Source of the DNA: a virus | Length of the DNA: 64,000 bases | Virus record (IMG/VR): IMGVR_UViG_3300027714_000005 | Reading direction: 5' to 3' (one strand) | In this document: piece after piece, positions 36,188 to 62,922 of the stretch | Layout of the letters: the number at the start of each line of letters is the position of its first letter | Position numbering within the stretch: the first letter of the stretch is position 1 | Translations under genes and position numbers: made by a program | The notes under the pieces: model-generated | The model's database searches: none | What the model saw: only the letters and a program-made list of their open reading frames with translations | What the model was told of the DNA's origin: nothing

Positions 36188-38014
36188 ATGGCGACAACAA
36201 TAAAATCCACATCGTTAGACTTTGATGCGATTAAGAATAACCTCAAGGTATTTCTTGCTGATAAGAACGAGTTTGCAGATTACAACTTCGAAGCATCTGG
36301 TCTTTCCAATATTTTGGATGTCCTTGCATATAATACACATTATAATGCGTTGACCGCCAATTTTGCTTTGAACGAATCTTTCCTAGGGACGGCACAGTTA
36401 CGTAGTTCTATAATCTCTCTTGCCGAGGGTATAGGTTACATTCCAGATTCGAAGACATCGTCTCAAGCAATTATTAAACTGTCGTTGAATCTTTCGGGTG
36501 TTGTTGGTCGTGATACCCATATTCAAATTCCGAGTGGAGTTAAGTTTAACGCAACTGTTGATGAGACCGAATACGTATTCCAGACACTAGAGAACATCTC
36601 TGCGGAAGACAACGGTGCTGGACTATATGAGTTCGATAACGCATCTGGGAATAAGAACATTAAGATACATGAAGGAACCGAGAGGGTTAAGACCTTCATC
36701 GTTTCTAGAGCTGAAGACAACGAAGTCTATATCATTCCTGACAAATCAATAGATATTGATACCGCAATTGTTCGTGTATATGAACAACCGTCTTCTTCAG
36801 TATTCCTTCCGTATACAAACATTGTTAATGCTAACACCATTAGTGAAAATTCGACACTGTACATCCTCAAAGAATCACCTAACGGTCTCTTTGAATTGTC
36901 CTTTGGTAACGGAACAACCTTGGGTAAAGCACCCCCGACTGGTTCAAAGGTTACGGTAACTTATCTTGCCAGTAGTGGTTCACCATCAAACGCTGCTAAG
37001 ACTTTCGAGCCACAGTCTGGTGTAAGTGTTGCGGGTCAGACCTACAATATGACAGTAACAACGGTTGCTGATGCGGTTGGTGGTTCTTCGAAAGAAACTA
37101 TAGAGTCTATTAGACAAACTGCACCATTCCAATATGCAACACAAAATAGAATGGTAACTGCGGTAGATTACTCTGCACTGGTATTAAGAAACTTCTCCAC
37201 ACTGATTAAAGATATTCAATCATTTGGTGGTGAGGATGCACTCGACCCAGAATTTGGTACAGTGTTCCTATCAATCCTATTCAACGCAGACGTTGATGTT
37301 GTTACCGAACAAGAAACCAAGGATGCTATTACTGACCTTTCTAAACAGTTAGCTGTTGCATCATTCAAGGTTAAGTTTACCGACCCAATAAAAACTTTTA
37401 TTGAGACTAAAACTTTCTTCCAGTTCAACCCCACTTTGACAACACTATCAAGAAACACTATTCAAGATTCTGTGAACAATGTTATCACTGCGTACTTTAG
37501 TGCAAACACTGGCAAGTTCAATCAGTCCTATAGACGTTCTAATCTATTGACACTTGTTGATGATGTCAGTCCTGCGATATTGTCCTCTCGTACAGAAACT
37601 TTGATGCAGAGAAGATTCACCCCAACGTTGACTAAAATTCAAGATCACACTCTTCGATTCGTTACTACTCTGAAATCAACTGACGATTTGTTATATACCG
37701 TGACATCCTCACAGTTTGGATTTCAGAACAAGACGTGTATCATAAGAAACAAATTAAACACAAACAAACTAGAAGTGTTTAATGGTGAAGACAATGAAGT
37801 TCTTGTTGATAACGTAGGTTCGTTTGCGGGTGATACCGTTTCTATTGTTGGTCTACAAATCGACAACCTTATTGGTACAAACACATACATTAAAATCTCA
37901 GCAAAACCTGCTAATGAAAGTGCGATAACACCATTTAGACAGGATATAATTGAGTTAGACCCAGCGAACACATTCTCTCGTATTGTTGATGTTGATACTG
38001 GGGTCACTAACTAA
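36188..38014 (+). CDS. gp6: Baseplate wedge protein gp6
   Basis: LDFD.IK.NLK.FL, DYNFEASGLS.ILDVLAYNTHY, ESFL.TAQLR.S, E.IESIR..AP, QNR.VTA.DY, GGED. Confidence 0.95.
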   Translation: MATTIKSTSLDFDAIKNNLKVFLADKNEFADYNFEASGLSNILDVLAYNTHYNALTANFALNESFLGTAQLRSSIISLAEGIGYIPDSKTSSQAIIKLSLNLSGVVGRDTHIQIPSGVKFNATVDETEYVFQTLENISAEDNGAGLYEFDNASGNKNIKIHEGTERVKTFIVSRAEDNEVYIIPDKSIDIDTAIVRVYEQPSSSVFLPYTNIVNANTISENSTLYILKESPNGLFELSFGNGTTLGKAPPTGSKVTVTYLASSGSPSNAAKTFEPQSGVSVAGQTYNMTVTTVADAVGGSSKETIESIRQTAPFQYATQNRMVTAVDYSALVLRNFSTLIKDIQSFGGEDALDPEFGTVFLSILFNADVDVVTEQETKDAITDLSKQLAVASFKVKFTDPIKTFIETKTFFQFNPTLTTLSRNTIQDSVNNVITAYFSANTGKFNQSYRRSNLLTLVDDVSPAILSSRTETLMQRRFTPTLTKIQDHTLRFVTTLKSTDDLLYTVTSSQFGFQNKTCIIRNKLNTNKLEVFNGEDNEVLVDNVGSFAGDTVSIVGLQIDNLIGTNTYIKISAKPANESAITPFRQDIIELDPANTFSRIVDVDTGVTN

Positions 38015-40107: not shown

Positions 40108-41466
40108 ATGGCGATTATTACTAATCCAATTAAAAAGCAAGTGATCCAAGCTCTGAAGACTGATGTCGAGTTATCGAGCACACATTACTTTGCGGTAATT
40201 GGTCGTTCAGAAGATTGGAACGCAACTGACACTGCACCGTCCCCACTCAATTCTAGGAAAGAAGAGAGAGATTTCCGTCTGTCTGCACAGTCTGCGAAGA
40301 AAGTAATTGACCTTTCATTTGTTGTTCCTCGTTACAACTGGTCTTCTGGTGCAATTTATTCACGATACGATGATGCTGTAGTTGGGTATCCAACACAGAC
40401 ATACTATGTCATGAACGACAACAACCAAGTTTATATGTGTATACAACAGGGACAGAACGTTTCTGGTCAAGCACAGGTATCTACGGTTCAACCTAGTGGT
40501 AACACAACGGGTATTCCTTTTGACACTGCGGATGGATACATCTGGAAGTTCTTGTACTCTATTGGTGCGTTGGACGCGACTAAGTTTGTTTCTGCAAACT
40601 ACCTTCCAGTAACATTGGTTGGTACTACCGACTCGGATTCTCCGGCTGCAATCATAGAACAAAAGACTATTCAGAACGCTGCGGTAGTGGGACAGGTTAT
40701 TGGTTATGCAGTTGATTCGGGTGGTGCTGGTTATTCCTCTTCACCGACAATCACCGTTTCTGGTAACGGAACAAAGGCAAAAGCAAACTCCTTCATCTCT
40801 GGTGGTGCGGTAACTAAGGTTACATTGATCGATAGTTCTGGTTTATACACACTTGGTTCTGGATATAATTGGGCAGAAGTTACTATTACTGGTGGTGGTT
40901 CTCCAACCAAACCCGCCTCAATCCGTCCAATCTTATCTACTCCATTAGGATTAGGTGGAGACCCAAGAGACGATTTGCGATCAACAGCAATCATGTTTAA
41001 CACAAAACCTTCTGGTACAGAATCAACGGACTTTATTGTTGGTAATGATTTCCGTCAGGTTGGTCTGTTAAAGAATCCAATGGATTCAAGTGGTAGCACT
41101 TTGTTTACAGAAACTACAGGCATAGCTCTGAAGAAAATAAACCTGTCCACAGTGACTGCTGATTTCACCGCAGATAATACCATCAAAGGTAGTACATCTG
41201 GAATCGAAGCAATCATTGACAAAGTTGACAGTTCTAATGTTTGGTATCACCAGACTTCAGTAACGGGATTTGGAAACTTCGCTCAAGGTGAGGCAGTTAC
41301 AGAAACTAACGGAACTGGTGTTGGTGTATTGAATTCAAGTGTAACTCCATATTATGAACCTGAGATAGATACTATGTCTGGAGAACTACTATATATTGAT
41401 AACCGTGCTTCTATTACACGTGCTTCAGACCAGACCGAAGATATTAAACTCGTAATCCAAATTTAA
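40108..41466 (+). CDS. gp8: Baseplate wedge protein gp8
   Basis: IGR...W, VVPRYNW.SG..Y, YYVM.....VY.C, DGYIWKFLY, NDFRQVGLLKNP, SGELLYIDNR..I.R..DQTEDIKLVI. Confidence 0.9.
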   Translation: MAIITNPIKKQVIQALKTDVELSSTHYFAVIGRSEDWNATDTAPSPLNSRKEERDFRLSAQSAKKVIDLSFVVPRYNWSSGAIYSRYDDAVVGYPTQTYYVMNDNNQVYMCIQQGQNVSGQAQVSTVQPSGNTTGIPFDTADGYIWKFLYSIGALDATKFVSANYLPVTLVGTTDSDSPAAIIEQKTIQNAAVVGQVIGYAVDSGGAGYSSSPTITVSGNGTKAKANSFISGGAVTKVTLIDSSGLYTLGSGYNWAEVTITGGGSPTKPASIRPILSTPLGLGGDPRDDLRSTAIMFNTKPSGTESTDFIVGNDFRQVGLLKNPMDSSGSTLFTETTGIALKKINLSTVTADFTADNTIKGSTSGIEAIIDKVDSSNVWYHQTSVTGFGNFAQGEAVTETNGTGVGVLNSSVTPYYEPEIDTMSGELLYIDNRASITRASDQTEDIKLVIQI

Positions 41467-41477
41467 GGTTATAACCG

Positions 41478-44400
41478 ATGCCAAAGACATTTACATCCAA
41501 CGTATTCTCTTCCTCTTATAAGGATGATTTTACCGCTTCCGATAACTACCATCGAGTATTATTTAATAGCGGACGTGCTTTGCAAGCAAGGGAACTTACC
41601 CAATTGCAAACCATCATCCAAGAAGAAATAGGGCGATTTGGTCGAAACATATTTAAAGAAGGTGCTGCGGTAAATCCTGGCGGCCCTACTATTACGAACG
41701 ATTACGAGTTTGTCAAACTAAACACTGCAACCTATTCACTTCCCAGTGACATAAGTACTCTAGTTGGTGTAACCCTTACGGGTGCAACTTCTTCGGTGCA
41801 AGCAAAGGTAATTGAAGTAGTTGTTGCAACTGGCAGTGACCCTGCAACGTTGTACGTACAATACATTAACACTTCTTCGGGTTTAGCTGGTGAGAACACA
41901 ATTCGTTTAACTGCTAACGAAGTACTAATTAATGCTTCTGGTTCGAATCTACAGATTGCGACTGCTGTCGGTACTGACCTCCCTATCGGTAGAGGTTGTA
42001 AGATTGCAAACGCATCGGGTGACTTCTTTACTCGTGGCCACTTCGTGTTCGCGACTGGTCAATCAATCATTCTGTCCAAGTACTCCAGATATCCTACTAA
42101 GGTTGTTGGTTTTAAAGTAACAGAAGACATTATCACTGTTTCTGATACCACTGATCTATACGACAATCAGGGTGCCACACCCAACCTGTCTTCGCCTGGC
42201 GCAGATAGATATCGTATCCGACTCACACTAACCACTGAAGACCTAGTGGCAACAGACGAAAACTTTGTCTACTACTGTGATGTCGTAGATGGAAATATCG
42301 TTGATCAGGTAACTGGTGCTGACGATTATAACAAAATTGCAGACACACTTGCACGTAGAACTAGTGAAGAATCTGGTAACTACATTGTCAATCCATTCAC
42401 TGTTGACTTTACTGACTCTGGTACTAATACCATTGCTACTATATCAGATGGTGTTGCATATGTCAATGGTTATCGTGGTGCAACCGAAAAACCTACTCCA
42501 TTAACTATTGCTAAACCTCGCGAAACCGCAGTTGTTCCAAACGAAGTTGCTGGTATCTCTTATGGACAGTATTTCATATGTGACGATCTCAAGGGTAGAT
42601 TAGACATTCGTACTAATGAGACACTGAATTTATCTACATCAACAACCAACCCTGCCGCAAGTATTATTGGTACTGCGAGAATTCGTGCTGTAGAAGAAGA
42701 TGGTTCGAACTTCCGTGTATACCTGTTCGACATTAAAATGAACAGTGGTCAAAACTTACGTAACATTAAGACTATTGGCACATCTACAATTAAACGTGCA
42801 ATACCAGTCTTCGAGGGTGGTAAAGCGTTCATCAAAGAGTCTCGACAAACAAACTTGGTGTTTGGTTTACCAAACCCTCGTCCTAGAATCGTTAGTGACG
42901 TTGATTTCGAAGTTCAACGAGTATTTGTTGAAACTGCCAGTGGTGGTGCGTTTACACTTAACCTTACTACTACCGGAGAAACATTCGTCAACACTTCTCA
43001 GTGGATTGTTGTTAAAGACACTGACGGTGTAGTGGTCACCAATGCCACATTCGGTTCCGTAGGTACACAAAGTCTTACTGTTAGTAACTTAACCAATGTA
43101 GCACACACAGTATATGCAAAGGTAAATAAAGCAGCTCCTGCTGTTCGTCAGAAGACTCTTGTTACAACTACAAAGACTGCCGCAGTCGAATCTGATGGTG
43201 CTGGTATTTTGTTTGTTGGTTTAGATGTAACAGATATTCAAAGTGTTCAATCAGTAAAACAAACAAATGTTAACGGTGCGGACATCTCGCATCTATTCAC
43301 ATTAGATAACGGTCAACGTGCCGGTTACTATGACAATGGTCGTATGTTACTTGAGACTGGTGCAAGTGCACCGTCTGGTAATGTCTATGTTGGATTCAAA
43401 CACTTCACCCACGGTGCGGGTGATTTCTTTGCCGTAAACTCCTATATTGGTCAGGTTAATTACGAAGACATCCCAACCTTCAATACTGGTATACGTAACG
43501 GTACTGTTAATCTACGTGATGTAATTGATTTCCGCAATGGTGTTAACGCTAGTGGTGTGTTCACAAATACTACTGCAACAGAGATTCCTACAAACGGAGA
43601 CATCTTCCAAGCAGACGTAGAATACTACCTACCTCGTGCGGATAAGGTTGTTGTTACCAATCAAGGTGAAGTTAAGAACATTATGGGTGAAGCCGGTTTC
43701 GGTTCGATGGTTCCTGCTACACCAGAGAACACATTAGCACTATTCCAGTTGCAACACAATGCATATGGTCTAAATGATTCTGATGTTGTTGTTGTACCAT
43801 TTAAAGCAAAACGATTCACTATGGGTGACATCTCCAGACTGGAAGATAGAATCGATAAAATCGAAGAAGCAACTTCATTGAGTCTTCTTGAACTCGAAAC
43901 CGCTTCACTACTAGTATTAGATAGTGACGGTAACCCAAGAACTAAGTCGGGATTCTTTGTTGATAACTTCTCAAGTAGATCATTCTCTGATGCTGATAAC
44001 GTTGAGTATCGTGCTGCCATCGACCCCTCAAGAGGATTCTTATCAGTACCCACTCTAGAAGATGATGTAATCCTTGCATATGATTCCTCTAAGTCAACTA
44101 ACACTATCATGAAAGGTGATACTGTTTACTTGAACTATACGGACTCTGCAACTATTACACAGACCTTAGTAACTGGTACTGAGAACGTCAACCCATTTGC
44201 AGTTATTACTGGTGAGGGTAACATTACGTTATCTCCAGCAACTGATAACTGGTTCCAGACAAAGTACGCCCCAGCAAACATAATTAATGCTACCAAAACT
44301 GAGAATGTTAATGTTAATCTAGGTAATATCCAAAGTAATATCATTACGCAAGAATTACCAGATGCAAATAAATGGAAGTGGGATATAGGTAACTCGTGGA

Positions 44401-46679
44401 CACCCGTTGCCGGTTTTGGTCAGATTCCAAATGAACTTCGTTCGGGTTGGAGAGGAACTCCTGCTTGGAACTGGAGAGGTGTACCTGCCGAAAGTACCAG
44501 AGTTGTGGATGTTGGTAACAACAACGGTGGTCGTGCTGGCCAAGACTTCAACGTTGTTAGGTCTTTCTCCAACCGTATTGTTGTTGGTGAGAAGACTATA
44601 CGTAAAGTCGTTGGTGAGAAGACTGTATCGTTGACATTCCTTCCCTTCATTCGTGCACGTAAAGTGTTCTTTAAGGCAGAAGGTTTACGTCCTCAGACAC
44701 GATTCTTCCCATTCTTCGATGGTACTCCTGTTGCAGACTTCTGTAGAGAAGAGACATTTAAACGTTATGGCGCACTTGCAACAGACGTATCATACTCTAA
44801 CGCAAACCGTAGAGCAACTGCACACCCCCAAGGTGCGTCTAACCTTGAGACTGATGCTAACGGTGTTATTGAAGGTTCGTTCTTTATTCCTTCATCCGAA
44901 ACCAAACGTTTCCGTGCTGGTACACGAGAGTTCAAACTCTTGGACATTAGTAAGAATGATGACGCAGCTGCGTTATCTCGTGCATCTTTCAACTATACCG
45001 CACAAGGTACTTTGGATACACGACAAGAGACTATTACCTCAACTCGTATCACACAGACTAGAACTCGTAGATGGACTACAACAACACGAGTTAAAGTAAC
45101 TGACCCATTAGCACAGTCATTCTTTGTGACCAACCCTAGTGGTATCTTTGTAACTAAGATTCAGACTTACTTTAAGAGTAAGGACGCTACTGGTATTCCG
45201 ATTCAGTTACAAATTCGTCCAATGGTTAATGGTCATCCAAGTTCGACTGAGATTCATGCTCAGTCTATTAAGTTCTTGAATTCCTCTGCGGTTGCTATAC
45301 CGTCTGCACAGACACAAACAGCAGTTACCGCTGCACCAACAACATTCGAGTTTGATGAACCAATCTTCTTGAATCCCGACACAGAGTATGCTATTGTTCT
45401 ACTTGCGGAATCTATTGAGTATGAAGCATATGTTGCTGAAACATACGCATACGAATTAGGTTCTACCGAGAAGAGAATCTCTCGTCAACCTTCTATGGGT
45501 TCATTGTTTAAGTCACAGAACGGTACGACTTGGGAACCAGATCAGACTAAAGACCTTGCATTCAAAATCTTTACTGCTCAGTTTGTTTCTTCAGGTACTG
45601 CGGTGTTTGAGAACCGTGATGTAGAACCATCTGCACTGGAAAACAACCCAGTGTACATGAACGCTGCACATGGTGCTGACAGTGACCAAGTAACACTACT
45701 ATGTTCTAACCACGGTTTCAACTTAGGTGACACGGTTACTGTATCTGGTCTAGTCCCCGCAACAACCTACAACGGTGTCAAAGGTTCGTCTATCAATGGT
45801 GCGAGAACGATTACTCGTGCAGATGGATTTGGTGTCAGATTCAATGCCGACTCGGCCGCAACCTCTTCAGGTAGATTTGGTGCAGAGTTGATCACAATCG
45901 ATAAACAGATTCAATATGATGTTGCGTCACCTAACATGACCACACTATTACCGGATGACACTACACTTACTTACCAAACTAAGTTAACTTCTGGTAAGTC
46001 ACTTGCAGCGGTATCTGGTAGTCAGGTTAAGTATGCTAGGGATACTGCGTACTCAAGTGAAGTTGTTATCGGAGATGAGAACTACTTCGCAACTCCACGA
46101 TTGGTTGCTAACGCTGCAAACGAAACTGCTGAACTGGGTTCGGGTGAACGGTCTGTATCTGTCAAGGTTGCGATGGCAACGACACGTTCTGCGGTATCTC
46201 CGATCATCGATACACAGGGTGCGTCACTATCAACGGAATCGAATCAGATTGATAATCAGGTTGCCAGTGGTACTGAGAATGGTGTCAACATCCCATTGAC
46301 TTACTCTGCGGAAACTAATGCGTTCGGTGGTTCTTCACTTGCCAAACATATGAGTACTGTTGCAACACTAGACTCCCATGCTGTTGGTATGAAAGTACTA
46401 CTTGCCGCAATAAGACCTTCCGGTAGTCACATCGATGTTTACTTCAGAACAGGTACTGAAGGTACTGATATCTATAGTACTTCATGGATACTAGCTTCAC
46501 AAGAAACGACTGTTGCACCCGATGATAGAAACTTCCGTGAGTATCGTTACATGATTGGTGGTGATACCGGAACAATAGATGCATTCACTGAGTATCAATT
46601 CAAGATTGTATTCCGTGGTAATAACTCATCCAAGGTTCCGTTCATACGAGACTTTAGAGCTATTGCGATGGCAACATAA
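41478..46679 (+). CDS. Large virion structural protein (VrlC/DUF4815-like)
   Basis: Y.DDF....NYHRVLF..GRALQARELTQLQT, PGADRY, LARRT.EESGNY.V.PF, RFTM.DI..LE.RI, GFFVDNF, DPLAQSF, GSLFKSQN..TW. Confidence 0.85.
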   Translation: MPKTFTSNVFSSSYKDDFTASDNYHRVLFNSGRALQARELTQLQTIIQEEIGRFGRNIFKEGAAVNPGGPTITNDYEFVKLNTATYSLPSDISTLVGVTLTGATSSVQAKVIEVVVATGSDPATLYVQYINTSSGLAGENTIRLTANEVLINASGSNLQIATAVGTDLPIGRGCKIANASGDFFTRGHFVFATGQSIILSKYSRYPTKVVGFKVTEDIITVSDTTDLYDNQGATPNLSSPGADRYRIRLTLTTEDLVATDENFVYYCDVVDGNIVDQVTGADDYNKIADTLARRTSEESGNYIVNPFTVDFTDSGTNTIATISDGVAYVNGYRGATEKPTPLTIAKPRETAVVPNEVAGISYGQYFICDDLKGRLDIRTNETLNLSTSTTNPAASIIGTARIRAVEEDGSNFRVYLFDIKMNSGQNLRNIKTIGTSTIKRAIPVFEGGKAFIKESRQTNLVFGLPNPRPRIVSDVDFEVQRVFVETASGGAFTLNLTTTGETFVNTSQWIVVKDTDGVVVTNATFGSVGTQSLTVSNLTNVAHTVYAKVNKAAPAVRQKTLVTTTKTAAVESDGAGILFVGLDVTDIQSVQSVKQTNVNGADISHLFTLDNGQRAGYYDNGRMLLETGASAPSGNVYVGFKHFTHGAGDFFAVNSYIGQVNYEDIPTFNTGIRNGTVNLRDVIDFRNGVNASGVFTNTTATEIPTNGDIFQADVEYYLPRADKVVVTNQGEVKNIMGEAGFGSMVPATPENTLALFQLQHNAYGLNDSDVVVVPFKAKRFTMGDISRLEDRIDKIEEATSLSLLELETASLLVLDSDGNPRTKSGFFVDNFSSRSFSDADNVEYRAAIDPSRGFLSVPTLEDDVILAYDSSKSTNTIMKGDTVYLNYTDSATITQTLVTGTENVNPFAVITGEGNITLSPATDNWFQTKYAPANIINATKTENVNVNLGNIQSNIITQELPDANKWKWDIGNSWTPVAGFGQIPNELRSGWRGTPAWNWRGVPAESTRVVDVGNNNGGRAGQDFNVVRSFSNRIVVGEKTIRKVVGEKTVSLTFLPFIRARKVFFKAEGLRPQTRFFPFFDGTPVADFCREETFKRYGALATDVSYSNANRRATAHPQGASNLETDANGVIEGSFFIPSSETKRFRAGTREFKLLDISKNDDAAALSRASFNYTAQGTLDTRQETITSTRITQTRTRRWTTTTRVKVTDPLAQSFFVTNPSGIFVTKIQTYFKSKDATGIPIQLQIRPMVNGHPSSTEIHAQSIKFLNSSAVAIPSAQTQTAVTAAPTTFEFDEPIFLNPDTEYAIVLLAESIEYEAYVAETYAYELGSTEKRISRQPSMGSLFKSQNGTTWEPDQTKDLAFKIFTAQFVSSGTAVFENRDVEPSALENNPVYMNAAHGADSDQVTLLCSNHGFNLGDTVTVSGLVPATTYNGVKGSSINGARTITRADGFGVRFNADSAATSSGRFGAELITIDKQIQYDVASPNMTTLLPDDTTLTYQTKLTSGKSLAAVSGSQVKYARDTAYSSEVVIGDENYFATPRLVANAANETAELGSGERSVSVKVAMATTRSAVSPIIDTQGASLSTESNQIDNQVASGTENGVNIPLTYSAETNAFGGSSLAKHMSTVATLDSHAVGMKVLLAAIRPSGSHIDVYFRTGTEGTDIYSTSWILASQETTVAPDDRNFREYRYMIGGDTGTIDAFTEYQFKIVFRGNNSSKVPFIRDFRAIAMAT

Positions 46680-46888
46680 TGGCATCTAGACTAATTAATG
46701 TCGCAGGAAACCCGAATTTGGCAAGATGTCCAAGTTCGGGTGCTATTATTAATATAAATAAAGATGAGATAGAAAAATCACGTGCATTGAAGAGTGCTAG
46801 ACAAAACAAAGATAAAGAGTTCCGTGAGTTGAGACAAGATGTCAATGACCTGAAAGAACTCCTCAATAAACTGGTAGAGAAACTGTAA
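46679..46888 (+). CDS. Small hypothetical virion-associated protein
   Basis: V.G.PNL.R...SGAIIN plus C-terminal coiled coil; TAATG couplings on both sides. Confidence 0.7.
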   Translation: MASRLINVAGNPNLARCPSSGAIININKDEIEKSRALKSARQNKDKEFRELRQDVNDLKELLNKLVEKL

Positions 46889-47991: not shown

Positions 47992-50094
47992 ATGAGTAGT
48001 GTTCCATTAAAATTAAAAGACACCGCAGACTTCCAAGAAATAACTACCTCAGAAGAGAACTATCTTGCTTATCAGGTAGGTCTGGGTTTTGCGGCACTCG
48101 ATAGTTCATCTGTAAATCAGTTGGGTGTAAACCTGTCTGGTGACAATCGTACTGTAGGAACCTTTACTGATACTTCCTACGATTCGGCTATCGGAACTCA
48201 TACTAATCTTCTTTCGACAACAAGTATATCCACGGTAATTCGACAGAAGGCTGGTACTGCCACTATCTCTGGTAACGACTATCGTGTTCTAGTATCACAG
48301 AGAGATAGTGACGGTCAACGAATTGTTCAGGAAATGGACGATACCAAACTGAATGTCCTTCTAGATAGAATCAATTCACGAATCTATACGTCAGATTATC
48401 CCGGCACTTACAAACTTGCAACGTCTGCCCCCAGTGGAGATTACTCAGTAAATCTTGCTAATGTAATGACAGATACAAGAACTGACGGACATTCTCTTCA
48501 GTACAACATCTATCAAAGAAATACCATGACCGCACCAACAACGGTTCGTCCGTTTGCGATTAAACGGTCTAGTGGTCAAACGGGTACGTATCAAGGTCTT
48601 CAGGAAATGACTGATGGCCAGATTAAATACTCACTTGGTATTAAAGCAAGGAATCGTACTTCCTCAACTGCGAACTCTGTTGGTACATACAAAATACTGA
48701 GTTCTTCTACAGGAACCCCAACTAATGCGGGATTCGCTGGTACGTGGCAAGCAAAGGGTACTGCAACAGATACACGTCAAACTGTTAGTAATGTTAACTA
48801 TACCCGTACCCGTAACTCGACATATTCACGACTAAGAACTTCTACCTATAGTGCAAACTATACTAGAAACCGCAGTAGTACATTCCTAAGAAATTCTACT
48901 ACTACTCGTTCGAGTACATTTTCTGCCACATATGTAACAACACGAACAAGTTCTTACTCTCCATCATTTGTTGGGGATTACATTGGTAATTTTACTACAA
49001 CTACTGCGAACACTTACACTCGCACACGGGCATCAACACTTGATTTCCTAAGAACCAGTACGGCCGGTTATACTGGTAATTATGCCCGTTTATTAGAATT
49101 CACTGGTAATTTCATTGGTAACTACACTGGTAACTATCTGGGTCAAAACTTTGGTCGATCTTTTTATAGAACACTATATGTAAGTGTTGACCAAGAGACA
49201 TTTTCCTACTCAAGTTTCTATGCCGCTGACTACTCAAGAAATCGTATTACAGACTCTACGGTTACCTCAACACGGACGAGCACATACACTAGAGCAACTG
49301 GTGGGTCTTTCACCGGCAACTACTCAAGTCAAGCTTATTATTTAGGTAACTATGTTGGTAATGTTAGTACAACTAGTACACGTACCAGTCAAAGGGTCAC
49401 TGCTAACAATTTCGCAAGAAACTTTGCTGGTAACTACGCAAGAAACTTTGTGGCAGGGTATTCTCGAAGTTTTGCTAGAGACTTTATTGGTACATCAACA
49501 ACCACCTTTACAGGTAACTTTACTGGCGACTTTACTGGTGATTACACTGGCGACTTTGTTGGTAACTTTATTGGTAACTATACAGGTGTTCGAACATATA
49601 CGGTAAGACGTGCCACATACCATGCAAAAAGTGGTAGTGCATTTTACTATACTAGACAATCTACATCGGCACCGACCGACTTTCAACGAGATCGCACCGT
49701 AAATAGAACAGCAAATTCTACAAGAACATCTACGGCCGCTTTCGCACGGAATCGGACAGTTTATTTTACTGGCAACTATGCTCGAAACTTCACTTCCACA
49801 TTTACAGGTAACTACTCAAGAAACTTTGCTCGTACTCGTTCAAGTAACTTTACGGGAGCATCTTCATTTACAAGAGACTTTGTTGGTAACTATCTAGGTA
49901 ACTATTCCAGAGTATTTAGCGCAAACTATGCAGGTAATTATTCACGAAACTTTGCGGGTAACTACACTGGTAACTATAATAGAAACTTCATCGGGGATTA
50001 TGCTAGAACCTTTACAGGTAACTATGCTAGTACAACCATTGGGTCAGGTAACGAAAACATAGAGACCTACACCATGTACGTAAGAATTGTATAA
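47992..50094 (+). CDS. Putative virion fibre protein A: globular N-domain plus GNY/RTR low-complexity region (predicted branched beta-hairpin)
   Basis: N-terminal ~265 aa paralogous to 50105-52543; repeat region 48790-50037. Confidence 0.75.
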   Translation: MSSVPLKLKDTADFQEITTSEENYLAYQVGLGFAALDSSSVNQLGVNLSGDNRTVGTFTDTSYDSAIGTHTNLLSTTSISTVIRQKAGTATISGNDYRVLVSQRDSDGQRIVQEMDDTKLNVLLDRINSRIYTSDYPGTYKLATSAPSGDYSVNLANVMTDTRTDGHSLQYNIYQRNTMTAPTTVRPFAIKRSSGQTGTYQGLQEMTDGQIKYSLGIKARNRTSSTANSVGTYKILSSSTGTPTNAGFAGTWQAKGTATDTRQTVSNVNYTRTRNSTYSRLRTSTYSANYTRNRSSTFLRNSTTTRSSTFSATYVTTRTSSYSPSFVGDYIGNFTTTTANTYTRTRASTLDFLRTSTAGYTGNYARLLEFTGNFIGNYTGNYLGQNFGRSFYRTLYVSVDQETFSYSSFYAADYSRNRITDSTVTSTRTSTYTRATGGSFTGNYSSQAYYLGNYVGNVSTTSTRTSQRVTANNFARNFAGNYARNFVAGYSRSFARDFIGTSTTTFTGNFTGDFTGDYTGDFVGNFIGNYTGVRTYTVRRATYHAKSGSAFYYTRQSTSAPTDFQRDRTVNRTANSTRTSTAAFARNRTVYFTGNYARNFTSTFTGNYSRNFARTRSSNFTGASSFTRDFVGNYLGNYSRVFSANYAGNYSRNFAGNYTGNYNRNFIGDYARTFTGNYASTTIGSGNENIETYTMYVRIV

Positions 50095-50097
50095 ATA
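50090..50097 (+). promoter_or_regulatory. T4-type late promoter
   Basis: TATAAATA overlapping the stop of fibre A, 7 nt before ATG 50105. Confidence 0.7.
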
Positions 50098-50104
50098 GGA
50101 TGAT

Positions 50105-52543
50105 ATGGGAACTACCACACTAAAACTCGAAGGCACCAATGGTGACCTTAAAGAGATAACTACCTCAGAAGAGAACTATCTTGCTTATCAAGCAGGCCTG
50201 CATCTCTCTGCGTTAGATTCAAGTGACGTGGCATCGATTACTGCGGTCAGTACTAATAACACTATAATTGGTGCATTTACTGATACTAGGTATAATGATG
50301 CTTCTGGGACACACGGGTTCGACAATGGCAATGCTCCGGTGCAACAGACGATAACCTCATTATATCAAAGAGAGGGGGTGACTGATTTTGCGGGAGACTC
50401 TGCGGCATATAGATATCCTCTAGAGTTCACCGACAATAGCGGAACACCCGAACTACACGAATTAGATTCCGCAGAAGTTGATACAATAAGTGACCGTCTC
50501 CTATCTCGTATCGCAGTATCAGAATATCCTGGCGTATATAAACTTGCGACATCTGCTCCCACTGGATATACCACATACAAGTCAAATGTATTTTCGGATA
50601 ATTTGCAGACAGGTGTATCTGGAACTACGTACAATATCTATGTAAAGAACACAATGTCGGCCCCGACTGCGGTGAGACCTGTTGCTATCAAGAGATCAAG
50701 TGGACTGACAGGCACCTTCCAAGGTGTCCAAGAGATGACCGATGCCGAGATACGATATAGTTTTGGTTCAAGGGTACAGTCACGCATCTCAAATAGCAGT
50801 GCCGGTATTGGTACATACCAGATGCGGAGTTCCGCACAGGGTGCGCCATCTGACACGGGTACTTGGTCAAACCGAGGTACAGCATCAGACACTCGTTACA
50901 ACACAGTGAATACTGACTATGCGGCCGCATACACAAGAACTCGTTCTAGTAACTATGTTGGTAACTACAGTAGAAACTTCGCAAGAACCTTTGCGGGAAC
51001 ATTTACTGGTAACTTTGTACTATCTTTCATTGGCAACTATACAGGTAACTACTCAAGAAACTTTGGGGGAGACTATACGGGTAATTATGCTCGTACTTTT
51101 GTTGGTGACTATATAGGTAACTATGCTCGAAACTTTGCGGGTAACTATGTTGGTAACTACAGTAGAAACTTCTCTGCGGTGTATAGTAGAACTCGTGTAA
51201 CTGATTACGTTGGTGACTTCACTGGTAACTTTACTGGTAACTACTCACGCAACTTCCAAGCAGATTACCAAAGAACTCGTGTAACAACCTATACGGGTAA
51301 TTTTGCGGGTAACTACTTAGGTAACTATGTAGGTAACTATGCTCGTGCATACTCTGCGGATTACCAAAGAACACGTACTGCTGTGTTTACTGGTAACTTC
51401 TTAGGAGATTATGTTGGTAACTTCTTAGGAGACTATGTTGGTAACTTCGTTGGCAACTATACTGGTAACTTCGTAGGTAACTATACTGGTAACTTCGTAG
51501 GTGACTATGCAAGAACACGTACAGCAGTCAATGGTGCTTCATACGCAAGAACTCGTACCGCCACTGGCAACTATGCGAGAACTCGTACCGCCACTGGCAA
51601 CTATGCAAGAACTCGTACCGCAAGTGCCTCGTATGCGAGAACAAGAGTAGGTACATTTGTGCGAGTTCGGGTGAGCGGGTATTCGGGTGGTGGTAAAAGT
51701 GGTAACGCTTATAGCTACCAAGGTAACTTCGTAGGTAACTATGTTGGTAACTATGTAGGTAACTATTCCAGAAATTTATCCTATGTAGGTAACTATTCCA
51801 GAAATTTATCCTATGTAGGTAACTATTCCAGAAATTTATCCTATGTAGGTAACTATTCCAGAAATTTATACTATGTTGGTAACTACGGAAGAACACGTGC
51901 TACCGCATACGCAAGAACACGTGCTACCGCATACGCAAGAACTCGTGCTACCAACTACCAGAGAACACGTGCTACTAACTACCAGAGAACACGTGTAACG
52001 AATTACACTGCTTACTACTTAGGTAACTATGTTGGTAACTATGCTCGTGCATTTTCTGCGGATTACCAGAGAACGTCTACACGTACTCGTGTAACGAATT
52101 ACGTTGGTAACTTCGTAGGTAACTATGTTGGTAACTATGCTCGTGCATTCTCTGCGGATTATACCACCAACTTTACCCAGACATTTACTGGTAATTTCCT
52201 TGGAGAATATACCGGAAACTATGCTCGTGCGTACTCTGCGGATTATCAGAGAACCAGAAGTTCCGCATACTCTGCGGCCTATAATAGAACAAGAAGTTCG
52301 ACCTATTCTGCTGTCTATCAAAGAACACGGACTTCGAGTTATGCGGCTGATTACCTTAGAACATCTACGACCGATTCGACTAGGGCGTCCACTGGGGTAT
52401 CTACGGTGACTCGTTCGAGCGCATACACCTCAACTAGCACACAAGACTTTACTGGTAATTACACGGGAAACTATGTAGGAACCACAATTGATACTGGGTC
52501 GTCTACCATTGAGACATACACATTGTATCATAGAACGGCATAA
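50105..52543 (+). CDS. Putative virion fibre protein B: globular N-domain plus GNY/RTR low-complexity region (predicted giant beta-hairpin)
   Basis: Paralog of 47992-50094; repeat region 50909-52486 symmetrical around SGGGKSG. Confidence 0.75.
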   Translation: MGTTTLKLEGTNGDLKEITTSEENYLAYQAGLHLSALDSSDVASITAVSTNNTIIGAFTDTRYNDASGTHGFDNGNAPVQQTITSLYQREGVTDFAGDSAAYRYPLEFTDNSGTPELHELDSAEVDTISDRLLSRIAVSEYPGVYKLATSAPTGYTTYKSNVFSDNLQTGVSGTTYNIYVKNTMSAPTAVRPVAIKRSSGLTGTFQGVQEMTDAEIRYSFGSRVQSRISNSSAGIGTYQMRSSAQGAPSDTGTWSNRGTASDTRYNTVNTDYAAAYTRTRSSNYVGNYSRNFARTFAGTFTGNFVLSFIGNYTGNYSRNFGGDYTGNYARTFVGDYIGNYARNFAGNYVGNYSRNFSAVYSRTRVTDYVGDFTGNFTGNYSRNFQADYQRTRVTTYTGNFAGNYLGNYVGNYARAYSADYQRTRTAVFTGNFLGDYVGNFLGDYVGNFVGNYTGNFVGNYTGNFVGDYARTRTAVNGASYARTRTATGNYARTRTATGNYARTRTASASYARTRVGTFVRVRVSGYSGGGKSGNAYSYQGNFVGNYVGNYVGNYSRNLSYVGNYSRNLSYVGNYSRNLSYVGNYSRNLYYVGNYGRTRATAYARTRATAYARTRATNYQRTRATNYQRTRVTNYTAYYLGNYVGNYARAFSADYQRTSTRTRVTNYVGNFVGNYVGNYARAFSADYTTNFTQTFTGNFLGEYTGNYARAYSADYQRTRSSAYSAAYNRTRSSTYSAVYQRTRTSSYAADYLRTSTTDSTRASTGVSTVTRSSAYTSTSTQDFTGNYTGNYVGTTIDTGSSTIETYTLYHRTA
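51751..51870 (+). repeat. 30-bp coding tandem repeat x4 (YVGNYSRNLS)
   Basis: CTATGTAGGTAACTATTCCAGAAATTTATC: three exact copies plus one with a single mismatch. Confidence 0.95.
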
Positions 52544-52582
52544 ATTACTTATATATAAAACTGAATGAAACAGGAGACTATA

Positions 52583-53032
52583 ATGTCTAGAACATGGTTA
52601 GATAATGCGTTTTGGGAAACACCCAGAAAAGAGTTATTAAACGCAATAAGCGAAGAAGTTGACGGTAATAAAACTAAACGTCAGGTTCACAAAATAGAGA
52701 AATTGAATGCCGATGGCACCCCCAATGAATTGTTCATAGAAGCGATTGAATTTCTCGGTGAAGAAAAGATTAATGCCTCTAGTCAAAAACGATTGTCGAA
52801 AAAACAAGACGAAGCGGACATCGAAAAACAAAAGAAAATGGAACACGAACGTGCAAAGAAACTAGAACAACTCTTTGAGTATAAACTAGAAACCTTTGAA
52901 ATTCCAGAGATTAAAGAATCTAAAAATCGTTTGTTGAAATCAAAACTAAGACGGTCTAAATCTGTCCCTGAAGTGAATTTATATGCTATTTTATTGGTAC
53001 AGGAATCATTAGAAGATGTCGGAACTAAGTAA
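52583..53032 (+). CDS. Hypothetical protein (charged, helical; possible fibre assembly factor)
   Basis: AGGAG RBS; follows the fibre genes. Confidence 0.65.
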   Translation: MSRTWLDNAFWETPRKELLNAISEEVDGNKTKRQVHKIEKLNADGTPNELFIEAIEFLGEEKINASSQKRLSKKQDEADIEKQKKMEHERAKKLEQLFEYKLETFEIPEIKESKNRLLKSKLRRSKSVPEVNLYAILLVQESLEDVGTK

Positions 53033-53765
53033 AGGTTTTGTTATTGTTGCATCAAGAAATATTAATTTTTACACTTATGCAATAAATCTAATACAATCAA
53101 TCAAAGACTATTACCCAGAAGCACTCATCACCTTGGTGACCGAGGAAAGGTTCTTTGACGGCCGTGAAACCGAAGACACTGATCAAATTATCATCTGTGA
53201 TAACCACTACCGTGCAAAACTGTGGGGTATGGCAAACACACCCTACGACATTACGATGTATGTCGATGCCGATATGGAGTGTGAACACGAAGATATCATG
53301 ACCATATGGGATGAGATGAAAGACTATGATATGGTCTTTCACGAGTTAACCAAGGAACGTGAACAATTCTATGCTATTCGTGAGTTCAAGTACAACGGTG
53401 GATATGAGAAGTATAAATTGTGTGGAGGAGTGTGTTTATATCGCAGTGGAAATCCATTAGTAAAGGAGTTTATGGACGATTGGTATGAACTGTATTGTAA
53501 ACAATATGATAATAGATGGATGCCCGATGGTTTCGATAAAGCACAGTGGGCTAAAGACCTCCGACATTTCGATCAGACAACCCTCTGGTGGTTAGTGAAT
53601 AAGGTCGAGAAATACAAAGACCTCAAGATTGGAATCTTCGAAGATGATATCCGATGGAATTACTTTACACAATACGGATACGAAGGTTTGAAGTCTAAGA
53701 CTGGTGCTCCACCTATCCTTAGACATTACTCAGGTTGTTTACAAAAGGACACACCTATAGTATGA
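53016..53765 (+). CDS. GT-A glycosyltransferase-like protein
   Basis: GFVIVA, RAKLW.M..TPYD.TMYVDAD (DxD), GGV.LY, DQ..LW, RWN, HYS. Confidence 0.7.
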   Translation: MSELSKGFVIVASRNINFYTYAINLIQSIKDYYPEALITLVTEERFFDGRETEDTDQIIICDNHYRAKLWGMANTPYDITMYVDADMECEHEDIMTIWDEMKDYDMVFHELTKEREQFYAIREFKYNGGYEKYKLCGGVCLYRSGNPLVKEFMDDWYELYCKQYDNRWMPDGFDKAQWAKDLRHFDQTTLWWLVNKVEKYKDLKIGIFEDDIRWNYFTQYGYEGLKSKTGAPPILRHYSGCLQKDTPIV

Positions 53766-54448
53766 TTGATGTCCCTATCAACAACAAAGAAATACTAGCA
53801 ACCCTGAAAAAGTTCGAGTGGTATTACGAAAATCGGGAACATATTAGTAAGTATTTACGGAAAAATGGTCGTAAGGAACACCGTGAACACTATGTATGTG
53901 ATGAATATCGTGACAAGATTATTGCGGAAGATACAAAACACGAAGGGTTCCCCGAAGATTCATATAGTTATAGTTTGAAAGAAGATCAACTGTATCAAAA
54001 GTTGGATGATCTAAGACAACCCGATCACGGAAAGGAGATGGTTAAGATACTTGCGAAGTATGGTGAGTTGAATACAGAACTCTGTACACTATTATCTACA
54101 AGAAATAACGCATTACAAATTATGTATCCACCAGATGGGTTTATCGCGTGGCACAACAATGCCAATGCTTCGGCATATAACCTAATCTTCAGTTGGTCAG
54201 AAACCGGTGATGGTGATTTTAGGTATGTTGATGGTCATACCGGTAAGATGGTCGTTATGAAAGACAAAAAGGGGTGGCAGTGTAAAGCTGGATACTTCGG
54301 TGCGTATGGTGAACCTTGGTACAATCGAGTATATCATGCTGCCCAAACAAACTGTTGGAGAGTTACGGTGTCCTATGTATTTGATAGAACCGATATTGCC
54401 CACGGACTACAAGATGAAATTATAGAAGAAATAATGTCCGATTACTAA
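53762..54448 (+). CDS. 2OG-Fe(II) oxygenase-like / cupin protein
   Basis: YPPDGFIAWHNN, distal YHAA, terminal R.T.S strand pattern. Confidence 0.55.
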   Translation: MIDVPINNKEILATLKKFEWYYENREHISKYLRKNGRKEHREHYVCDEYRDKIIAEDTKHEGFPEDSYSYSLKEDQLYQKLDDLRQPDHGKEMVKILAKYGELNTELCTLLSTRNNALQIMYPPDGFIAWHNNANASAYNLIFSWSETGDGDFRYVDGHTGKMVVMKDKKGWQCKAGYFGAYGEPWYNRVYHAAQTNCWRVTVSYVFDRTDIAHGLQDEIIEEIMSDY

Positions 54449-54468: not shown

Positions 54469-54476
54469 TATAAATA
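54469..54476 (+). promoter_or_regulatory. T4-type late promoter
   Basis: TATAAATA upstream of 54517. Confidence 0.7.
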
Positions 54477-54516: not shown

Positions 54517-54885
54517 ATGTCATCAGCAAATTACGAAGATATTACCATTAATCAAGGCACCGATGTTTCTGTAGAAATACATCTGGTGCATGATAGTGGT
54601 AGTACATATAACCTCTCCAACCACAGCGTAGCTGCCAGTCTAAAACGCAGATATGCTGATTCCGCAAATGATCCCTTTACAGTTCAATTTAATGCCGTGG
54701 TTGTATCTCCATCAACTGATGGAATCATAAACCTATCTCTAACTAACACACAAACAGATGCGATGAAACCTCGTGGTCGATATGTTTATGATGTGGAAGT
54801 TTCCTATACCGATAGTGATAATAACGCAATCATTCAACGAGTCCTTGAAGGACAAGCCGAAGTTTCCCCATCGGCAACGAAATAA
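54517..54885 (+). CDS. Ig-like fibre adaptor (BppU-N-like)
   Basis: ITINQGTD, GII.LSLT..QT, GRYVYDVE, RVLEG..EVSP. Confidence 0.7.
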   Translation: MSSANYEDITINQGTDVSVEIHLVHDSGSTYNLSNHSVAASLKRRYADSANDPFTVQFNAVVVSPSTDGIINLSLTNTQTDAMKPRGRYVYDVEVSYTDSDNNAIIQRVLEGQAEVSPSATK

Positions 54886-60435: not shown

Positions 60436-61236
60436 ATGTCACAATACAATAGAATAACAAGCCGATCCCAGTTTGTCGATTACTGTCTCCGTAGATTGGG
60501 ACACCCCGTGATCGAAATCAACGTGGACGATGAACAAATTGAAGACCGTGTTAACGATGCGTTACAACTGTTTGGTGAATACAATGGTGAGGGTAGTTAC
60601 CGAATTTACGTTACAATCACCATAACAGCTGCAATGGTATCTAGAGGTAGTATTGATTTCGATTTGGACGAAGGGCTACTACCGTCAGGTATAAACCCAG
60701 ATGACATATTGAGTATTTTGCGAGTACTTCCGTTTGACACTTCATCTAGTAGCACTAGTTTCATGGACGCTAAATATCAAATGCGTCTTAATGATATTCA
60801 TGGTATGCAAAATGGTCTGGCTGACATTGCGGGTTACGAACAAATGCAACAGTACCTGAGTCTCATTGATATGAAACTGACGGGTACTCCACAGATTCAA
60901 TGGACAAGACAGGGTAACGCCTTACAGATATTTGGTGATCTTGGTGGAACTGGAGACCTCAAGGCTGGTAAATCAATCGTGGCTGAAATGTATGTTGCGA
61001 CAAGTGCCAACGCTAATGGTAAACTATATAATAATATATTCCTGAAAGAATACGCAACCGCACTCATAAAAGAACAGTGGGGTGCAAACCTTATTAAGTT
61101 TGAAGGAATGGTACTGCCTGGCGGTGTTCAACTTAATGGTAGACAAATTTACGAAGATGCCAAATCGGAAATCGAAGTTATTCGTCAACGCATATATAAT
61201 GAGTATGACACTCCACCAGACTTCTTTGTAGGATAA
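60436..61236 (+). CDS. gp13: Neck protein gp13
   Basis: DYCLRRLG.PVIEINVDDEQIEDR, LKEYATALIK.QWG.NL.KF.G..LPGGV.LNG. Confidence 0.95.
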   Translation: MSQYNRITSRSQFVDYCLRRLGHPVIEINVDDEQIEDRVNDALQLFGEYNGEGSYRIYVTITITAAMVSRGSIDFDLDEGLLPSGINPDDILSILRVLPFDTSSSSTSFMDAKYQMRLNDIHGMQNGLADIAGYEQMQQYLSLIDMKLTGTPQIQWTRQGNALQIFGDLGGTGDLKAGKSIVAEMYVATSANANGKLYNNIFLKEYATALIKEQWGANLIKFEGMVLPGGVQLNGRQIYEDAKSEIEVIRQRIYNEYDTPPDFFVG

Positions 61237-61240
61237 CATA

Positions 61241-62143
61241 ATGGCAACGAACCCGTATTTCAAACAAGGTGTTCGTTCTGAACAAAACGTCTACGAGGAC
61301 ATCATAATTGAAGCCCTCCAGATGTATGGACAGGACGTATATTACCTCCCACGAGAAATCGTTAACAAGGATTCAATCTTTCTTGATGACATCCCGTCAC
61401 GTTTTGGTTCTGCATACAAGATAGAAATGTATATCGAGAACACCGAAGCGTTTGATGGAGAGGGAGACTTATTCACCAAATTTGGAATCGAACTCCGAGA
61501 CCAAGCAAACTTCATCGTCTCTAGAAAGAGATGGAAACAACTTGTCGGTGCACGTCTAGCGGAAACGGCAAACTTCCGTCCACGTGAAGGTGACCTAATC
61601 TTCTTGTCATTGTCCAAGTCTATCTTCGAGATCCGTAAGGTAGAGACTGAGAGTCCATTTTTCCAGTTACAAAATCTTCCCACGTTCCGTATGCAGTGTG
61701 AACTGTTTGAATACAGTGACGAAGACTTTGATACTGATGTTGTTGATATTGACATGGTGGAAGGTGAAGGTGCATTCCAATACTCCTTGACACTCGACTC
61801 CTCTGGTTTATACAACAACCTTGCTGGTACAACTGGTACTAGTTTCACGATTGGTGAACAGGTATTGCAGACTTTCACTGGATATGACATGGTAGGTGAA
61901 ATTACTCGTTGGAGTGATTCTGACAACACCTTACATATCGGACACGCAGGTGCAACTGATGGTAAGTATCATGTTTTCGTAACAGGCAGATCGGTTACCG
62001 GACAATCTTCGGGTAGGGTCGCTAAACCTACTCTTGTTGCAGAATTACAAGAGATTCAGAAAGACGCACAGAACAAAACCTTTAATGACTTCGAAGCCGA
62101 CTTCCTCGACTTCTCTGAGTCCAATCCGTTCGGAGACTTGTAA
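61241..62143 (+). CDS. gp14: Neck protein gp14
   Basis: NPYF, EQ..EDIIIE...YGQDVYYLPR, KFG.E.RD, RP.EGDLI, CELFEYS, DFSESNPFG. Confidence 0.95.
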   Translation: MATNPYFKQGVRSEQNVYEDIIIEALQMYGQDVYYLPREIVNKDSIFLDDIPSRFGSAYKIEMYIENTEAFDGEGDLFTKFGIELRDQANFIVSRKRWKQLVGARLAETANFRPREGDLIFLSLSKSIFEIRKVETESPFFQLQNLPTFRMQCELFEYSDEDFDTDVVDIDMVEGEGAFQYSLTLDSSGLYNNLAGTTGTSFTIGEQVLQTFTGYDMVGEITRWSDSDNTLHIGHAGATDGKYHVFVTGRSVTGQSSGRVAKPTLVAELQEIQKDAQNKTFNDFEADFLDFSESNPFGDL

Positions 62144-62922
62144 TGTTTGGAACATGGTTTTATCATAAGAGAGTAAGAACTGCGGTATCTGTATTTGGGT
62201 CGATGTTCAACAACCTACATGTCCTCCGTCACAATAGTGCGGGGGAGACAGTATCACAGGTTAAAGTACCTCTGTCATATGCACCAAAGAGAAACTTCAT
62301 CTCACGTTTGGATGAGATGAGTAAGGGTGAGGATGCAGAACGTAGGGTTGCTATTAAGTTACCTCGTATGTCGTTTGAGATTACAAACATGGCATATGAC
62401 CCGTCACGACAGTTACCCAAGGTAAACAAAATCTCTAAAGCGAGTAATGAGATAACTAAACGACAGAAGATTTACACATCTACTCCGTATACAATCTCGT
62501 TTCAGTTAAACATCTATGCAAAATCACAGGACGATGCGTTACAACTTGTTGAACAGATTCTACCATATTTTGCACCACAGTACACCGCAACGATTAAACC
62601 CTTTGCAGATATTCCCACACTAACCGAAGATGTTCCTATCTCTATGTCGGGCATAACCTTCCAAGATGATTACGAGGGTTCGATAGAACAACGTAGGACT
62701 ATTATATATACATTAGACTTCGAAATGAAAATTGCGTTATACGGGCCCGAAGGGACTGGTGAGATTATTCGTGATGTCCGAAACAACTTCTTCTTACAAG
62801 AAACTGGATTACGGGACAGTGACACATATCTCAAGACGCAGAAGATTACTCCGAATCCATCTAGTGTTGCTGCGGACAGTGACTATGGATTTACTACAGT
62901 AGACTTGGATAGCAGTGGATAA
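62143..62922 (+). CDS. gp15: Tail sheath stabilizer/terminator gp15
   Basis: FYH..R..V..FG..FN, KVPLSYAPK, LPRMSFE, QLVEQILPYF.P, RR.IIYTL.F. Confidence 0.95.
   Translation: MFGTWFYHKRVRTAVSVFGSMFNNLHVLRHNSAGETVSQVKVPLSYAPKRNFISRLDEMSKGEDAERRVAIKLPRMSFEITNMAYDPSRQLPKVNKISKASNEITKRQKIYTSTPYTISFQLNIYAKSQDDALQLVEQILPYFAPQYTATIKPFADIPTLTEDVPISMSGITFQDDYEGSIEQRRTIIYTLDFEMKIALYGPEGTGEIIRDVRNNFFLQETGLRDSDTYLKTQKITPNPSSVAADSDYGFTTVDLDSSG

Follow-up and report, generated by a model that had tools for sequence, protein, structure and literature searches.

A set of five adjacent genes in a 64,000-nucleotide (nt) stretch of the virus record IMGVR_UViG_3300027714_000005 (this whole stretch being referred to here as the window) is, on the evidence of its sequence relatives, a conserved module of uncultured marine T4-like myoviruses that lies in their host-recognition region, and its layout suggests that it is expressed late. 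Two of the genes encode repeat fibre proteins (RP1 and RP2), which are followed by a trio made up of a small helical protein (SH), a predicted glycosyltransferase (GT), and a protein with the predicted fold of the 2-oxoglutarate (2OG) oxygenases (OXY). The best reading of this arrangement is that the trio carries out the cytoplasmic maturation of RP1 and RP2 before assembly, to which a probability of about 0.5 can be given, and in which we infer that the fibres are the substrate, as well as the chemistry and the site. The lone lysine at the tip of the repeats, which an earlier note on this DNA had proposed as one candidate for the modified residue, is not the conserved site. The open reading frames (ORFs) of the module, all five of them on the + strand, are as follows:

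47992-50094, + strand: RP1, repeat fibre protein of 700 amino acids (aa), with an N-terminal domain (N-domain) of ~265 aa, period-4 aromatic GNY/RTR repeats, and the C-terminal IETYTMYVRIV
50105-52543, + strand: RP2, an 812-aa repeat fibre protein whose mirror-complementary arms span ~260 residues each
52565-53032, + strand: SH, small Lys/Glu-rich helical protein of 155 aa, with a 3' end that overlaps the start of GT by 17 nt
53016-53765, + strand: GT, predicted glycogenin/GT8-like GT-A glycosyltransferase of 249 aa, with the DxD at 53265-53273 and H237-Y-S-G-x-x-x-K at 53724-53750
53762-54448, + strand: OXY, predicted PHD2/P4H-like (P4H, prolyl 4-hydroxylase) double-stranded beta-helix protein of 228 aa, with W-H-N-N at 54149-54160, H192 at 54335-54337, and R200 at 54359-54361

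The OXY ORF was first listed as 53735-54448, with a TTG start that is probably wrong, given the start of the homologues at ATG 53762, which results in the 228 aa cited here. Searches of Pfam and PHROGs with all five proteins returned nothing, except for a weak phrog_1903 match for GT, and a megablast of the region against the GenBank phages found no match.

The linkage of the genes across phages was examined in two sets of IMG/VR loci (clade 1), i.e., the best 80 of 314 GT-positive stretches and the best 80 of 169 RP-positive stretches. In the GT-anchored set, the order RP(s)-SH-GT-OXY-fibre-assembly gene is found in all 80 loci wherever the upstream DNA suffices, at 56-97% identity, and each locus has one or two RP genes of 446-2,059 aa. 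When the search is anchored on the RP N-domain, the trio follows in 45/45 of the loci that extend at least 2.1 kb past the last RP, while in the remaining 31 the sequence ends too soon after the RP to be scored. The earlier note had proposed a five-gene unit and, as a check on it, the co-occurrence of the three downstream genes with the repeat proteins in other genomes, and this expectation was borne out wherever a locus could be scored, irrespective of the direction of the search and in each of the two deep clades. The period-4 aromatic repeat proteins of two complete genomes, of 149 and 167 kb, are present only as a pair directly upstream of the trio.

Among the GenBank phages, RP, SH, GT, and OXY each match one record only, the uncultured Phage C48C1, a 156-kb entry (OQ984149.1) assigned to the Kyanoviridae, which is the sole related GenBank phage and has one 3,347-aa RP directly before the trio; a literature search for "C48C1" found nothing relevant. 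The fibre-assembly gene matches 36 GenBank records, from cyano-, pelagi-, and Methylophilales myophages, and in P-HM2 it lies directly 3' of a small "virion structural protein". Given this, the block from RP to OXY behaves as one insertion unit.

A distant OXY homologue with ~28% identity (P0380) led to a second, deeply diverged clade (clade 2), in the stretches L088-L121 (e.g., L091:5293-11375). Two period-4 RPs are followed here by SH (E 1.5e-14), GT (3e-32), and OXY, with the order kept, and these RPs have an RP-type N-domain, period-4 aromatic repeats built from GIYS, GGYA, SGTY, and NQYT units, a central break, and a C-terminal ...Y(S/T)(L/F)WKRxA. The features common to the two clades are aromatic residues at intervals of four (58-91% of them with another at +4), Gly/Ser/Thr, the N-domain, and the C-terminal motif. 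The loop at the clade-2 tips, YGS.xE(S/T)PNPxxSSEGPxY, is conserved and contains two or three Pro, and a canonical PF13640 P4H gene (HxD...H...RxS) lies directly 3' of OXY in 29/29 loci, whereas clade 1 has neither the tip Pro nor a canonical P4H gene; PF13640 was also sought in five related genomes, with no match. The combination of a P4H and a Pro-rich tip in clade 2 fits oxygenases of the module acting on the fibre tip, as a single evolutionary contrast.

The layout of the genes also suggests that the trio is transcribed late, together with the RP genes. In addition to the 17-nt overlap between SH and GT, GT and OXY overlap by 4 nt, as ATGA. The T4-type late-promoter word TATAAATA occurs 14 times in the window, against 3.6 expected (~4x), a number reached by 0 of 100 shuffles, and, because it is enriched and placed upstream of structural genes, the phage group probably uses T4-like late transcription. 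The late-promoter-like words at the module are:

46753-46760, + strand: TATAAATA, upstream of a 361-aa fibre-like gene and RP1
50090-50097, + strand: TATAAATA, starting 15 nt before the ATG of RP2 and ending 8 nt before it, the last one before 54469
54469-54476, + strand: TATAAATA, before the fibre-assembly gene and the long fibre, marking the 3' boundary of the module

No copy of TATAAATA is present between 50098 and 54468. Among 62 distinct relatives, the word is never found before SH or GT, and it occurs inside the stretch from the last RP to OXY in four of them. This pattern, together with the overlaps of the genes, indicates that the trio is probably co-transcribed late with the RPs, apart from the downstream fibre. 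Throughout the window, examples on the + strand lie at 4527, 21832, 27403, 35724, 39034, 46753, 50090, and 54469, just upstream of structural genes.

The same data bear on the possibility that the trio acts on some other virion component, either the downstream long fibre of 1,838-1,882 aa or the baseplate proteins, as might be imagined from its location between two fibre gene sets. This is quite unlikely, however, given that TATAAATA stands before the fibre-assembly gene, and parts the trio from it, in 61 of the 62 relatives. The neighbour that follows the module in clade 2 is, furthermore, the neck gene gp13 rather than the fibre-assembly gene, which is absent both from the locus and from a complete genome of this clade (G008), so that the trio and the P4H abut gp13, and the RPs are still found directly upstream.

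The AlphaFold2 model of GT, which was built from family alignments, has a predicted local distance difference test (pLDDT) score of 92, and its structural matches are glycogenin (Z 17.5, root mean square deviation (rmsd) 3.6, 197 residues), the Skp1 galactosyltransferase Gat1 (15.1), GlyE (14.9), and LgtC (14.5). The Foldseek E is 1e-8, with the UGGT catalytic domain among the top Foldseek matches. The DxD motif, D84-A-D86 (TMYVD84-A-D86), is placed at the end of the strand 79-84, and is invariant in 25 sequences with 52-81% identity to the window protein. The residue H237, within H237-Y-S-G-C-L-Q-K, a motif of the H-[FY]-x-G...K type, is likewise invariant, and the intact DxD/His site can be taken as the putative metal site of a retaining glycosyltransferase. 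The description of this protein in the earlier note as a DxD glycosyltransferase is thus upheld by the confident model, the match to glycogenin, and the invariant DxD.

No Pfam match was found for GT at E <= 0.1, PF01501 included, nor any PDB profile match, and one GT homologue carries a precomputed PF00535 match. The family comprises at least 327 clusters at 90% identity in metagenomic data. As judged from its model, GT has a GT-A fold and is a GT8-type relative at the fold level, outside the curated GT8 sequence family.

A kinship of this type lends itself to another explanation, in which GT, perhaps with the participation of OXY, modifies the LPS (lipopolysaccharide) or envelope glycan of the host, blocking superinfection or the re-adsorption of virions to debris, and the position of the trio among fibre genes would reflect the mere plasticity of the host-recognition cluster. 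It is consistent with this view that the structural matches of GT include the LPS galactosyltransferase LgtC, at Z 14.5, and that GT8 is the commonest glycosyltransferase family in the equivalent region of the pelagimyophages, where O-chain modification was proposed (PMC7029224). That region was described as non-syntenic, however (PMC7029224), yet the order of the present genes is fixed in every scorable locus, always after the RPs, and their layout suggests late co-transcription with RP2. Moreover, the closest folds are those of protein-directed GT8s, with glycogenin (17.5) lying 2.4 above Gat1 (15.1) and 3.0 above LgtC (14.5), and no other LPS-pathway genes are located nearby, all of which makes an action on the host surface unlikely.

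The AlphaFold2 model of OXY, also with a pLDDT of 92, is a double-stranded beta-helix, which matches PHD2 (Z 11.5, rmsd 3.2, 145 residues), a Pseudomonas P4H (10.6), and PhyA of Dictyostelium (10.2). In this model, H131 lies at the end of strand II and H192 at the start of strand VII, and R200, eight residues past H192, opens strand VIII (200-207), so that these three residues would occupy, by position only, the places that are canonical for the pair of His ligands and for the Arg that binds 2OG. The site reads H131-N132-N133...H192, with Asn133 at the position of the carboxylate. Across 28 sequences, with identities as low as 22%, this Asn does not vary, and neither do Y122, W130, H131, D168, W172, H192, and R200. 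Given that Asn replaces Asp/Glu, the site of OXY departs from the 2-His-1-carboxylate triad.

The HxN family has at least 504 clusters at 50% identity, according to a profile search of 1.8 billion representatives, and the OXY family at least 398 clusters at 90% identity in metagenomic data. No Pfam match was obtained for the window OXY or for any of 28 diverse members (E <= 1), a profile search of the PDB sequences with the OXY alignment gave chance-level matches or none, and nothing relevant was found in the literature on an HxN facial triad. The earlier note had described the protein as 2OG-Fe(II)-like with HxN in place of HxD, and was right about the fold (PHD2, Z 11.5) and the motif. HxN is the invariant hallmark of the family and does not represent a decayed site. 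On the basis of the alignments, HxN is the signature of a large family absent from Pfam, for which oxygenase chemistry is putative.

The replacement of the canonical carboxylate ligand throughout the family is nevertheless compatible with a non-catalytic role, in which OXY would be a pseudo-enzyme or binding module, and GT, working with SH, a folding sensor or chaperone of the UGGT type for the very long beta-hairpin proteins, with no stable modification of the virion. The presence of the UGGT catalytic domain among the top Foldseek matches of GT and the strict linkage to the RPs can be understood in the same way, as can the fact that T4-like fibres generally need dedicated chaperones (gp38, gp57A). 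On the other hand, the DxD and His of GT and the His/His/Arg of OXY are invariant across 22-47% identity, as in working active sites, and quality control of this kind is an improbable function for the trio.

Related genomes have two or three OXY paralogues each and a single GT, which always adjoins one OXY. The solo paralogues adjoin the gp41 helicase, UvsX, ThyX, and a methyltransferase, and, in another phage, DnaB. In the OXY tree, the copies linked to a GT are separated from the main clade of solo copies (98/98) and fall into two clades (97/92 and 100/100), for which a sister relation has a support of only 69/0. The pairing of a TET/JBP-type dioxygenase with a glycosyltransferase for the hypermodification of DNA was considered for the linked copy and set aside, given its P4H/PHD-like fold and its location in a late fibre operon. 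A role in DNA hypermodification is possible for the solo paralogues beside the replication genes.

The candidate substrates, RP1 and RP2, are paralogues, with an N-domain of ~265 residues, a period-4 aromatic stretch, and a common C-terminal motif. The homologues of both clades all end in (I/L)ETYT(L/M)Y(V/Q)R(T/V)A or ...Y(S/T)(L/F)WKRxA, a motif that, in two complete genomes, is confined to these two proteins, and that may serve as a docking, assembly, or recognition signal. A profile search of the PDB sequences with the alignment of the RP N-domain gave chance-level matches or none, and look-ups of RP2 and SH in the ESM Atlas provided no usable lead and no structure.

In both proteins, the long period-4 aromatic stretch appears, from the distribution of its units, to fold back on itself. 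The tip was sought as the centre of the strongest mirrored anti-correlation between GN-type (Gly/Asn) and R-type (Arg) units, which is a sequence statistic only. The mirror centre of RP2 is found at residues 531-532, with r = -0.70 for arms of 200 residues, a value reached by 0/300 shuffles of 24-residue blocks, and a matching centre is also found in a relative without the tip Lys. RP1 has just a local minimum at 544-546, with r about -0.55, which is weaker than other centres. The two motifs concerned are:

49627-49650, + strand: RP1 motif KSGSAFYY with K546, where there is only a local mirror minimum
51695-51718, + strand: RP2 motif KSGNAYSY with K531, at the centre of the mirror pattern

The earlier note had observed that each repeat region contains exactly one Lys, in a common KSG motif, and a recount confirms this: residues 266-700 of RP1 have one Lys (K546, HAKSGSAFYY) and 45 Arg, and residues 266-812 of RP2 have one Lys (K531, GGKSGNAYSY) and 58 Arg, with both Lys in the motif K-S-G-(S/N)-A-(F/Y)-x-Y. 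The placement of this Lys at a hairpin tip, which had been predicted for both proteins, is well supported by the mirror pattern for RP2, and weakly for RP1. Given that the N-domains have K:R ratios of 10:14 (RP1) and 6:13 (RP2), the depletion of Lys is specific to the repeats, and it is family-wide, with a pooled repeat R:K of 9208:307 in 111 distinct complete clade-1 RP homologues, so that the presence of "only one Lys" is largely a consequence of the composition of the repeats.

The mechanism built on this residue, i.e., collagen-like hydroxylation followed by the glycosylation of the lone tip Lys, could draw on its occurrence in a common motif in both RPs of the window, and on the few close relatives that keep a Lys (GGGKGGNAYNY, YHSKSGSSFYY). 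The exact motif is found, however, in the two window proteins alone among the 111 homologues, and in a relaxed form in nine. The repeats of 40 of these homologues have no Lys at all, and in an RP2 orthologue with 91% identity, the tip reads GSGSGQTYNY, with the Lys gone. Tips of other relatives read GGGKGGNAYNY or GSGGGVYYY, or the segment is missing, and the repeats of clade 2 have almost no Lys, Arg, or Asn, with tips that lack Lys altogether. The enzymes themselves do not favour the idea, as GT is GT8-like and OXY P4H/PHD-like, with no specific lysyl hydroxylase match among the top rows. As the earlier note had itself named a lack of conservation of the tip Lys as grounds for rejection, its mechanism is refuted as a conserved feature, and is very improbable as an account of the trio. 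Of the other targets that it had put forward, the Ser of K-S-G is not universal (some relatives have GGGKGGDAYNY), and the Asn ladder is absent from the repeats of clade 2. The N-x-S/T sequons of GNY(S/T) were also considered as a general target, and ruled out, because clade 2 is without them.

Two observations on individual RP homologues may be added. The 3,347-aa protein of phage C48C1 (16012-26055) has several globular inserts between its repeat blocks, and a near-exact internal duplication of ~80 residues, with KTRHRSYLYYSTDTS...NFSGQY present twice in tandem. In one relative (L033, 4016-6325), the first RP gene stops early in unrelated sequence (...IWWNEWPIICKL, 19 Lys), which looks like a frameshift or an error in the assembly of the contig.

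In the maturation of RP1 and RP2 proposed here, GT would add a sugar to a Ser, Thr, Tyr, or hydroxylated residue of the fibre, OXY would hydroxylate or otherwise prepare the site, and SH may act as an adaptor or chaperone. Given that the clade-1 repeats contain almost no Pro (two residues in the repeat region of RP1 and none in that of RP2), proline is an unlikely substrate in this clade. A more specific version, which is conceivable and is offered here as a tentative proposal, is a dedicated pathway for period-4 tyrosine-repeat fibres that fold back and would form a new class, in which GT would O-glycosylate the protein, an undescribed HxN branch of the 2OG fold would prepare it, and the clade-2 P4H would hydroxylate the SPNP...EGP tip. 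If this were true, it would be a viral analogue of hydroxyproline-linked glycosylation, which would set receptor binding or shielding.

A number of points weigh against the maturation of the fibres by the trio. First of all, we infer the modification of a virion protein from the genes. The enzymes with a GT8 fold also build LPS, and the GT8 genes of this region in the pelagimyophages were read as modifiers of the host O-chain (PMC7029224). The replacement of the triad carboxylate by Asn extends to the whole OXY family, and catalysis by OXY is therefore putative, while neither GT nor OXY reaches any Pfam model. Given that solo paralogues adjoin replication genes, the HxN family is not intrinsically fibre-directed. 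The two clades have no residue or tip motif in common, so that no shared target site can be named, and the linked loci may stem from one or two ancestral arrangements, in which case the synteny counts are not independent events.

The closest functional analogy to the trio is provided by the hydroxyproline glycosylation of Skp1 in Dictyostelium and Toxoplasma, in which PhyA is followed by glycosyltransferases that include Gat1, so that a PHD-like hydroxylase and a glycogenin-like glycosyltransferase likewise act on one protein. PhyA and Gat1 are among the top structural matches of OXY and GT, respectively. This analogy is one of fold only, however, and the phage has no Skp1-like substrate, while the Pro tip and the canonical P4H are found in clade 2 only.

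Considered separately, GT is similar to glycogenin, Gat1, and GlyE (of serine-rich-repeat glycosylation) in its predicted GT-A fold, its DxD, and the C-terminal H-Y-x-G...K, and has the size of a bare catalytic domain. It differs from them in being only 12-17% identical, in lacking PF01501, and in being phage-encoded and fixed beside repeat-fibre genes. OXY, in turn, resembles PHD2/EGLN1, bacterial P4H, and PhyA in its double-stranded beta-helix (Z 10.2-11.5) and the placement of His/His/Arg, but these proteins have HxD/E where OXY has an invariant HxN, and OXY has no Pfam match. At the level of their models, both proteins are new fold-level relatives that lie outside the curated GT8 and 2OG-oxygenase sequence families.

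A number of viruses have been proposed or shown to modify their own structural proteins, for example, through the glycosylation of the capsid and tail proteins of mycobacteriophages, and in the chlorovirus PBCV-1, which has glycosyltransferases and a prolyl 4-hydroxylase. These systems involve other enzyme families, hosts, and substrates, whereas in the phage module the candidate enzymes are encoded inside a fibre operon of marine T4-like phages. To our knowledge, mycobacteriophages and giant algal viruses account for most of the cases of phage-encoded virion decoration documented to date. The GT8 genes of the pelagimyophages, which have a similar GT8-type fold, are found in the equivalent region between VrlC and the neck genes, but this region was described as non-syntenic (PMC7029224), and the GT of the window belongs to a rigid five-gene unit with repeat fibres.

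If the trio does modify the fibres, phages that are abundant in the ocean would be using enzymes to decorate the organelles with which they recognise their hosts, and this would add a layer to host range that is invisible to the comparison of fibre sequences alone. Two enzyme families that are uncharacterised and missing from Pfam are also delineated here, namely a glycogenin-like glycosyltransferase and an HxN family with the 2OG-oxygenase fold, and RP1 and RP2 form a concrete pair of substrate candidates for the trio.

With regard to its genomic setting, the window is part of a T4-like myovirus, and the module sits in the host recognition cluster, in the sense of Zaragoza-Solas et al. (PMC7029224), of the marine T4-like phages. 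Upstream of it are the baseplate wedge genes (gp6-like, 36188-38014, and gp8-like, 40108-41466) and a VrlC-like giant protein (41478-46679, phrog_358). The fibre-assembly gene (54517-54885, phrog_3304) lies downstream, followed by the fibre of ~1,850 aa (1,838-1,882 aa) and, further downstream, by the neck genes gp13, gp14, and gp15, at 60436-62922. Finally, a 707-aa protein encoded inside the baseplate module, at 31511-33634, has a C-terminal amidase/endolysin domain (phrog_822), and might act, in analogy to gp5, as a cell-wall hydrolase associated with the virion.

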